Shown in pieces: positions 1 through 3,000 of a stretch of 4,873 bases of DNA. Source of the stretch: a virus (lineage: Duplodnaviria; Heunggongvirae; Uroviricota; Caudoviricetes); the IMG/VR virus record IMGVR_UViG_2634166457_000016, positions 1 to 4,873 of that record; one strand, written 5' to 3'. Position 1 is the stretch's first letter. Every line of letters begins with the position of its first letter. Made by a program: the position numbers.

Positions 1-3000
1 GCAGACCGCCACCAGCATACTGAAGCAGCGACACAAAAAATACTTGCGCCGCTGCCTCCACGCCCACCAGCAAAACCCGCCACAGGAAAAGACGGTGGTC
101 AGCATTGCCGTTGATCCGGAGTCACCGGCTCAGTATCTCCAGCGCCAGAAACCACAACGGGAAGAGATGCCTGTATACACGCGCTGGGTAAAAACGCAGA
201 AATGCATGACGTGCGGTAATCAGGCAGATGATCCGCATCACATCATTGGTCATGGACTGGGAGGAATGGGAACAAAGGCTGATGATTTGTTTGTTATTCC
301 GCTGTGTCGCAAATGCCATAACGAACTACACGCAGGAGTAAAAGATTTTGAAGACAAACACGGCAGCCAGTTGTTGTTGCTGATTCGTTTTTTAATGCAC
401 GCGAGAAATTCGGGTGTTTTGAAGTGGAAAGCATAAATGACTGAACGCATAGAATTTGTTTTGCCTTACCCGCCAACGGTGAACACTTACTGGCGTCGTC
501 GTGGCAGCACATATTTTGTATCAAAAGCCGGGGAGCGTTATCGCCGGGCAGTGGCGCTTATTGTTCGCCAGCAGCGGCTGAAATTAAGCCTGTCCGGAAG
601 GTTGGCAATAAAAATTATTGCAGAACCACCGGATAAGCGCCGCCGTGACCTGGACAATATTCTGAAAGCGCCGCTGGATGCGCTGACGCATGCGGGGTTG
701 CTAATGGACGATGAGCAGTTTGATGAAATCAATATCGTTCGTGGTCAGCCAGTATCTGGTGGACGTCTGGGGGTGAAGATTTACCCCATAATGCTTGAAG
801 GGCAGGTCAAAAAATGAAACTGGAAGATTTACCGAAATACTACTCCCCAAAATCCCCCGGCCTGACCGATGCGTCCGCCTCGACATCAAAAGATGCGCTG
901 AGTATCACTGATGTGATGGCCGCGCAGGGCATGACACAAAATCGGGCTGAGATGGGTTTTTCTGCGTTCCTTGGGAAAATGGGCATTAGTATGAATGACA
1001 GAGAGCGGGCAACAGAATTGCTGACAGAATATGCACTCAGTCGGTGTGATCGCGTGGCGGCGTTAAGAAAACTCCCGGCAGAAATAAAACCGGCAGTGAT
1101 GCGTATTATGGCTTCGTATGCGTTTGAAGATTATGCCCGTAGCGCGGCGAGCAAAAAACAGTGCCCCTGCTGTCACGGAAAAAAATTTATTGAAAGCGAG
1201 GTTTTTACAAACAAGATCCAGTATCCGGATGGTAAGCCGCCGGTATGGGCAAAGTGTACGAAAGGTGTGTATCCGTCTTACTGGGAAGAATGGAAAAAAG
1301 TCAGGGAGGTGGTAAAAGTTGCCTGTCCGGAGTGTGGCGGAAAGGGTGAGGTTTCCACCGCCTGTAAGGATTGCCGTGGGCGTGGTGTCGCCATTCATCG
1401 TGAAGAGTCGGTAAAACGTGGTATGCCTGTTATCAGAGACTGCCAGCGTTGTGGTGGTCGTGGCTGTGAAAGACTACCATCAACGGAGGCATTTAATGCC
1501 ATATGCAAAGTGACGAGAGCTATCACGCTTGATACGTGGAAAAAATCAGTGAAACGCTTTTACGATACGTTGGTGGTTCGGTTTGACATTGAAGAGGCAT
1601 GGGCGGAGCGGCAGTTAAAGAGGGTAACGCGATAGTGTTGTTGATTTTTCCCGAATCTGTGGTAAATTTGCTCTAACGATGGGCGTTTTATGCCTGACGT
1701 TAGAAGATTTTTTACACCCCGCCGCCTGGCGGGTTTTTTATGACTGAAATCGCGTCAGTACAGTAAACGCGCTGGTGGCGGTGAATACCTGTCTTTCAGC
1801 TTGCTGGCTTTTTCGACAAGAGTTATTGGTGTGTCACGTTAACCGGAAAAGGGAAAAAGACATGCTAAAACAGCAGGATATGACAGAAACCGCCAGAGTA
1901 GTGTTTAATGAATTAAGCGTTACCGAACCGGCGACAGTCGGGGAGATAGCGCAGAATACTTACCTTTCACGCGAACGCTGCCAGTTAATACTGACCCAGC
2001 TGGTTATGGCGGGTCTGGCAGACTATCAGTTCGGTTGTTACAGACGCCTTCAGTCCTGAAGGCTTTTTTATTTGTGGTAAATGGGCGGCTGGTGGGTGTT
2101 AGCGGCACCTGTCAGTCCTTTGCTTATGTGTTGATGATAATTTACCTTTTGGGGCTATAATTGAACTAACCAATTGCTAATGAAAGTAAAATTATAATGG
2201 TTGTTGTCTGTTCAGTTATCATGGTTTGCTCCCCAATTAATATTTTTCTTGAAAAGGATACGTTGTCACTTAAGCCCGGCTCAGTCGTTCTGGCCACCAA
2301 ATGCATCAGGGCGCTTTTCCTTATGCATTATGGCAAAGTTAAAATTTTCGATATAAACCATTCCATAGTAAGTCAATATCTGGAAATTCAGCATAAGCTG
2401 ACAAGAACTCATCTGACTGACGTTCCGCTTTATCTGTCACTGGAACCCAACAACCCTGCGTTGGCTGAGGCTTTAATTACCAGCCAGAGATTTTCCGGAG
2501 ATACCACGGATATGTTTCTTATGATGGCATGCCTGTCGCTGTTTGAATCAGATGAACGGATATTATTATTTTTAAGTGGATGTTTATCCAGTATAAGTGC
2601 CAAAGTCAGGGCGATAATTCAGACAGATATATCAGCAAGCTGGACGCTTGGTGCGATTGCGTTACGCCTGCATATGAGTGAGAGTTTGTTAAAGATAAAA
2701 CTGAAAAATGAAGGGCACATGTTCAGTCGCTTGTTGCTGGAAGAGCGGATGCGTGTTGCTGTCAATATGTTATGTTCCCGGCATGGATATGGACAGGCTG
2801 TAGCAGAAAAATGCGGTTATTCAAGCTGGTCCTACTTTATTTCTGTATTTCACCGCTATTATGGCTTCCCGCCAGACAGATATGTATCCAGGCAAGGGCT
2901 TGATTATTGATTTTCATCTGATTATTATTTTTTGACCCGGCCCTTTAGCTCAGTGGTGAGAGCGAGCGACTCATAATCGCCAGGTCGCTGGTTCAAATCC

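Follow-up and report, generated by a model that had tools for sequence, protein, structure and literature searches.

psrA as an AraC-type cargo gene of a lambdoid prophage

The 237-aa open reading frame (ORF) in the 4,873-nt stretch of prophage DNA analyzed here (positions 1 to 4,873 of IMG/VR record IMGVR_UViG_2634166457_000016; hereafter the window, meaning this whole stretch) is very probably psrA, a prophage-borne activator gene of the AraC/XylS family that a lambdoid Escherichia coli prophage carries in its late region as a cargo cassette. An earlier note, made from the sequence, had assigned the ORF to the PatE/Psr class of regulators, and comparison with the O157:H7 genomes bore this out: the predicted protein showed 100% amino acid identity with ECs1087 of Sakai prophage Sp4 (start as called by PGAP) and with WP_000261909.1 of EDL933. 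The ORF itself is real, as RefSeq/PGAP annotates an identical 714-nt coding sequence (CDS) in O157:H7 genomes. The second O157 copy, ECs_2191 of Sakai Sp11 (PsrB), was 90.7% identical, in agreement with the published PsrA-PsrB identity of 90% (PMC10877973, PMC8565820), and the group that established the family refers in a 2026 paper to "psrA (ecs1087, Sp4)" (PMC13502914). psrA is thus an already characterized gene and finding it is not new; the novelty of this window lies in the mosaic backbone that surrounds a known gene. The analysis supports the earlier note in its essentials, including the class that it named, with three details corrected below, namely the kinship of the N-terminal domain, the extent of the AT-richness and the insulation by terminators.

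The 780-bp stretch singled out in that note recurs with 100% identity in hundreds of enterohemorrhagic E. coli (EHEC) chromosomes, and the prevalence among complete E. coli genomes was 726 of 5426, with a median of 2 copies. The ATG at 2197 was preferred over the older 195-aa call in Sakai because GadW, YdeO and AppY align with the product from residue 1 of both proteins. Pairs of psr copies and paralogues gave ratios of nonsynonymous to synonymous substitution (dN/dS) of 0.22-0.43, with lower values of 0.13-0.27 in the DNA-binding domain, and by this measure the psr family is under purifying selection. One family member, P0024, looks chimeric, having a diverged N-terminal half and ~80% identity overall while being identical to PsrA at residues ~150-200, a pattern that suggests recombination within psr genes. 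Directly before the psrA start there is a five-codon mini-ORF (2180-2197, + strand; ATG AAA GTA AAA TTA TAA) whose stop overlaps the psrA ATG (TAATG). It was rejected as a conserved feature, its ATG being ATT in the copy of an Stx2k phage, and is probably not functional.

The cassette and its mosaic backbone

The limits of the psrA unit were set by comparison with a sister prophage of E. coli PRO_A-1374 (L012), which is 96-98% identical to the window over positions 1-2131 and 2921-4873 and carries, between the same junctions, a 1160-bp DNA methyltransferase segment in place of psrA. As delimited by this alignment, the psrA unit is a discrete 789-bp module whose edges lie 2 nt 5′ of the -35 hexamer and 10 nt 3′ of the stop codon; the earlier note had placed the element at 2131-2910, very near these junctions. 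The GC content of the cassette is 40.8%, distinct from the 49.5% of the left flank and the 54.5% of the right flank, and the ORF has 42.3% (43% at third codon positions) compared with 50% for ninG, rusA and Q and 56% for nanS-p. Of all 714-nt stretches in the window, the one that begins at 2137 has the lowest GC. The ORF had been described as far more AT-rich than the flanking phage genes; the direction of this claim holds, with GC lower by 8-14 points, but the contrast is moderate and "far more" overstates it. A similarly low GC of 39-42% is shared by the chromosomal paralogues gadW, gadX and ydeO.

Because the methyltransferase is swapped in at identical breakpoints and the GC is lower, the cassette can be regarded as a horizontally acquired moron, as had been proposed. 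It is present in one and absent from the other of two collinear phages and differs in composition from the flanking genes; a terminator of its own directly downstream, between 2910 and 2939, was not found. The cassette lies 3′ of Q, pR′ and tR′ and immediately 5′ of the tRNA genes ileZ-argN-argO. Such a place within the late operon, with Q on one side, the lysis genes on the other and a small winged-helix ORF next to it, could also mean that the protein chiefly serves the phage by regulating the tRNAs, nanS-p, the lysis genes or lysogeny, any effects on the host being incidental, and the label of its PHROGs family (phrog_1450, "unknown function") would be compatible with such a role. We consider this very improbable. 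The near-identical L012 keeps the surrounding late genes and the tRNAs while carrying a methyltransferase instead of psrA, so that psrA is dispensable for the phage; moreover, the published phenotypes concern host genes of the glutamate decarboxylase (GAD) system and of the LEE (locus of enterocyte effacement), and the nearest chromosomal relatives are host stress regulators.

The backbone around the cassette is of two kinds. The left part (1-1715) is of the Sp6/L012 type, with 88% identity to Sp6 and 96% to L012, and has partial matches only, of 78-79%, to Sp4 (window 2-784). In contrast, the right part, from the tR′ hairpin onward (1716-4873), is 97.3% identical to Sp4 DNA. Judged from these alignments, the window is a routine lambdoid mosaic in which an Sp6/L012-type Q module is joined at ~1716 to an Sp4-type psrA-tRNA module, and no full-length match to it was found in complete E. 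coli genomes or phage records.

Promoter and terminators around psrA

The TATAAT promoter of the earlier note was recovered inside the cassette as the consensus match ATGATA-16-TATAAT; no other site in the window scored 10/12 or better. On the + strand of the 137-nt upstream spacer, a match this good would be expected by chance ~3% of the time, and the site is kept 5′ of psrB and of the psr gene of the Stx2k phage and is absent from the methyltransferase version. The same note had described the gene as insulated by terminators, which proved correct on the upstream side, where the hairpin at the end of the 65-aa ORF has an invariant stem and a variable loop in the four phages compared. On the downstream side the claim failed, since the terminator scan gave no credible terminator between the psrA stop (2910) and the first tRNA gene (2939), the next one lying past the tRNA cluster (3203-3220). 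A weak hairpin at 2889-2902 was not accepted as a terminator, since it forms 5 pairs, falls within the ORF and is followed by ATTATTGATT and not by a clean T-run. A promoter-like site for the tRNAs straddles the right junction, with its -35 (TTGATT, 2900-2905) in the cassette and its -10 (2923-2928) in the shared backbone.

Domain structure and relation to chromosomal paralogues

The C-terminal helix-turn-helix (HTH) of AraC type that the earlier note had recognized was confirmed with Pfam, the models HTH_18 (36.6 bits, cut-off 33.6, E 5.7e-9) and HTH_AraC (35.3 bits, cut-off 26.6, E 1.2e-8) both scoring above their gathering thresholds; these scores and the two-HTH C-domain place the protein in the AraC/XylS family. 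The architecture consists of a GadW/YdeO-like N-domain (residues ~1-130) followed by the AraC two-HTH DNA-binding domain (~134-233). The closest solved relative is the DNA-binding domain of GadX (3mkl, E 1.5e-18), onto which the modelled C-domain could be superposed with a template modelling (TM) score of 0.90, a root-mean-square deviation (rmsd) of 1.6 Å and 42% identity. An AlphaFold model built on a 13-sequence family alignment had a mean predicted local distance difference test (pLDDT) score of 71.8, with 85-93 in the C-domain. The best full-length Foldseek matches of this model were Rns, CsvR and ToxT (E ~5e-9, TM ~0.40). They were not used for ligand-pocket inference, because the model is moderate (pLDDT ~46-75 in the N-domain); on the strength of such a model they are enough to place the architecture and not to infer a ligand.

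At the sequence level, full-length identity was 37% with ECs_0287 of Sakai Sp1 (E 1e-51), which we take to be PatE (z0321, OI-8), 35% with GadW (E 1e-38), 31% with YdeO and 29% with AppY, while GadX aligned over residues 87-234 only (38%). When residues 1-130 were compared alone, E values were 3e-16 for PatE, 3e-7 for GadW (28% identity), 2e-6 for AppY and 1e-4 for YdeO, and there was no significant similarity to GadX (E 0.74). The N-domain, which had been likened to both GadX and GadW, shows a weak likeness to GadW, also matches AppY, YdeO and above all PatE, and has no significant similarity to GadX.

Given that the GadX DNA-binding domain is the top solved-structure match and that identity to GadW is 35% over the full length, one might take the protein for chromosomal GadX or GadW displaced to a prophage, as a true orthologue or a functional duplicate. 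This seems to us scarcely credible, since the NCBIfam equivalog cut-offs were missed by a wide margin (88.5 bits vs 500 for GadX and 104 vs 348 for YdeO), the N-domain has the lack of GadX similarity just described, and PatE and the Psr clade resemble one another far more than either resembles any paralogue of K-12. The low equivalog scores and the N-domain unlike that of GadX argue that PsrA is a paralogue, not an orthologue, of the chromosomal acid-stress regulators.

Regulatory role of PsrA

In published work, PsrA and PsrB raise GadE and YhiF, two regulators of the GAD island, leading to repression of LEE type III secretion, and PsrB and PatE activate gadE and hdeA with a gain in acid resistance, PsrB binding directly to the gadE and hdeA promoters (PMC10877973, PMC8565820). 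GadE turns on glutamate-dependent acid resistance while repressing the LEE, and PsrA helps persistence in ruminants (sheep) (reviews PMC10877973, PMC8565820; PMC13502914). Activation of gadE by PsrA is also described in PMC13502914, where psrA and gadE were down in a ΔhnrS strain and up after an HnrS pulse. As HnrS represses hha translation (PMC13502914), this response of psrA fits Hha/H-NS silencing of the AT-rich cassette. The suggestion of the earlier note that such a regulator could rewire host acid resistance or virulence is therefore in line with the literature on PsrA and PsrB (PMC10877973, PMC8565820).

The anatomy of the window is consistent with the following course of events. In the lysogen, psrA would be transcribed from its own promoter, probably under H-NS/Hha silencing, and because no terminator precedes the tRNA genes the transcript probably runs on into ileZ-argN-argO. 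The products of these genes read ATA and AGA/AGG codons, in which psrA is rich (ATA, 7 of 17 Ile codons; AGA/AGG, 6 of 13 Arg codons). Upon induction, Q-modified RNA polymerase starting at pR′ would pass tR′ and the terminator at 2046, placing psrA in the late operon, as for stx. According to the literature, the GadE raised by PsrA would increase acid resistance, repress the LEE and lower type III secretion. A bolder version, in which a small molecule, for example a fatty acid of the gut, binds in the N-domain and gates PsrA, as in Rns, CsvR and ToxT, and in which tRNA co-expression and a Q-dependent boost on induction are added, we regard as unlikely; if it were true, acid resistance and type III secretion would both be set by the state of the prophage together with the chemistry of the gut.

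It might also be asked whether psrA is a silent passenger in this host, intact but silenced or without a LEE target, and at most modulating acid resistance. The cassette has the low GC typical of H-NS-silenced DNA, no evident Shine-Dalgarno sequence was seen before the ATG, the backbone resembles that of prophages from non-EHEC commensal or extraintestinal pathogenic E. coli (ExPEC) strains, and deletion of psrB had little effect (PMC10877973, PMC8565820). We nevertheless doubt it, as the product of this allele has 100% identity with the functional PsrA of O157, the family is under purifying selection and the GAD targets belong to the E. coli core genes, so that the acid-resistance arm would still work.

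Against the identification of the cassette as psrA with an active regulatory role stand several points. The reviews place psrA (z1789) on OI-50/CP-933N (PMC10877973, PMC8565820), which conflicts with its location in resequenced EDL933, where the identical protein is encoded next to a PerC/Pch gene in an Sp4/CP-933M-like prophage (16008-16721 of locus L020, EDL933 1.266 Mb) and the potBC-integrated CP-933N-like prophage (1.63-1.68 Mb) has no AraC gene after Q; the OI-50 placement may trace to a late-region misassembly in the original genome. The psrA promoter is a consensus match only, and confidence in the N-terminal half of the model is low. Lastly, the regulatory role of this prophage's psrA in its host is carried over from the literature on the identical protein, and the mechanism of PsrA is cited through reviews and the 2026 paper PMC13502914. 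Weighed together with the full-length identity, these points leave psrA the very probable reading.

PsrA is one EHEC-prophage route to commandeer the core GAD acid-stress circuit, timing type III secretion and surviving stomach acid. Knowledge of the psrA gene itself is unchanged by this window. The identical allele on another lambdoid backbone, the methyltransferase swap and a homologue 5′ of stx2k point to a regulator that moves between phages as a small module. The result is also useful for annotation, because RefSeq gives only "helix-turn-helix domain-containing protein" and PHROGs only "unknown function".

Organization of the window

The window spans late-regulatory DNA of a lambdoid E. 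coli prophage with all features on the + strand (Table 1), and the Q gene defines the late operon here. The pR′ promoter was missing from the generic promoter scan because its score of 8/12 falls under the threshold; in the alignment with lambda, Sp6 and L012 the -10 TAAATT and the AACGATGGG element are invariant. The tR′ hairpin lies ~45 nt past pR′, and a pR′-tR′ leader RNA of ~60-65 nt would be expected. The 65-aa winged-helix ORF always precedes the cargo slot and is intact in the window, L012 and the Stx2k phage. Between the tRNA terminator and nanS-p there is a strong Rfam match to the small RNA family STnc100 (RF02076; 3265-3455, + strand; 138 bits vs a gathering score of 47).

Table 1. 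Features of the 4,873-nt window
Feature	Position	Strand	Evidence or remark
DUF968/NinG-like gene, 3′ end	44-436	+	
rusA	437-817	+	
Late antiterminator Q, 273 aa	814-1635	+	Pfam Antiterm PF03589, E 1.8e-49; PHROG anti-termination protein Q-like, E ~1e-112
Lambda-like late promoter pR′, TTGATT-16-TAAATT, then AACGATGGG pause element	1641-1668	+	Alignment to lambda pR′
tR′-like intrinsic terminator, strong, CCCGCCGCCTGGCGGG and T-run	1718-1739	+	Terminator scan; kept in Sp6 and L012
65-aa winged-helix ORF	1862-2059	+	phrog_331; weak TrmB match; backbone 5′ of cassette
Intrinsic terminator, hairpin and T-run, end of 65-aa ORF, 5′ of psrA	2046-2063	+	Terminator scan
psrA cassette, promoter and ORF, 789 bp, 40.8% GC	2132-2920	+	Comparison with sister prophage L012
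Sigma-70-like promoter ATGATA-16-TATAAT	2134-2161	+	Consensus match only
psrA CDS, 237 aa, ATG start	2197-2910	+	
tRNA, anticodon CAU, ileZ	2939-3014	+	Met by ARAGORN; tRNA-Ile by RefSeq, reads AUA
tRNA-Arg (UCG), argN	3022-3098	+	
tRNA-Arg (UCU), argO	3112-3188	+	
Non-coding stretch	3189-3677	+	
First intrinsic terminator hairpin 3′ of psrA, then T-run, past tRNA cluster	3203-3220	+	
DUF1737/SASA esterase, nanS-p type, start of gene	from 3678	+	

The cargo slot in other phages

Homologues of psr with 58-100% identity occupy the same slot in other prophages. Copies were located in Sakai Sp4, Sakai Sp11 and the Sp4-like prophage of EDL933, and no AraC gene was found in Sakai Sp6, Sakai Sp10 or the CP-933N-like prophage of EDL933. 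The bona fide Stx2k-converting phage phiSTEC1575-Stx2k has Q followed by the 65-aa ORF, psr, three tRNAs and, immediately after these, stx2kAB (L013, 5482-7805), its psr product having 89% amino acid identity to PsrA; this order puts psr in the classic stx slot. More distant homologues (58-63% identity; L016 2338-5726 and L018 3860-5723) lie directly 3′ of an N6_N4 DNA methyltransferase gene in the interval from Q to nanS-p, so the cargo of the slot can stack in tandem. A pch/PerC gene is found ~4-7 kb from psr, past nanS-p, in Sp4, EDL933 and Sp11. This pch/effector linkage is not visible in the window, because the window and its source contig KQ241491.1 (draft assembly GCA_001186315.2) both end in nanS-p. 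The window agrees with this contig at all but one of 4873 bases.

Comparison with known systems

The fatty-acid-binding AraC virulence regulators Rns, CsvR and ToxT share with the window protein a beta-rich N-domain, a helical linker and two HTH motifs, and differ from it in the low overall structural agreement (TM ~0.40, rmsd 15-17 Å) and an identity of 17-22%, the N-domain of the model being of low confidence. The K-12 regulators GadW, YdeO and AppY are closer, with collinear full-length homology of 29-35%, a similar size and a similarly low GC. The gadE promoter is a target of YdeO and GadW as well. GadW and YdeO differ, however, in being encoded by chromosomal or GAD-island genes, and AppY in lying on the DLP12 prophage outside the late-region slot. 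PatE, like PsrA, is encoded on a prophage, activates gadE and hdeA as an AraC-like protein and has the closest N-domain outside the Psr clade, but it is only 37% identical, has 35% GC and resides in a degraded prophage and not in the Q-tRNA slot.

PsrB (Sakai Sp11 ECs_2191; z2104, OI-57) is of equal length, occupies the same Q-ileZ slot and keeps the promoter-like site, while differing from the window protein by 22 amino acid changes, of which 17 fall in residues 1-130, and having only two tRNAs downstream. The closest system is PsrA of EHEC O157:H7 (ECs1087/WP_000261909.1; z1789 in reviews), identical over all 237 residues, and its Sp4 locus has the same cassette, promoter region, 65-aa upstream ORF and ileZ-argN-argO cluster. 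Sp4 differs upstream, where it encodes a 123-aa Q and a CPBP protease whereas the window has the 273-aa Q, RusA and DUF968 of the Sp6/L012 type, and in the 65-aa ORF, which in O157 Sp4 has a 1-nt deletion and is called frameshifted by RefSeq, whereas the copy in the window is intact.

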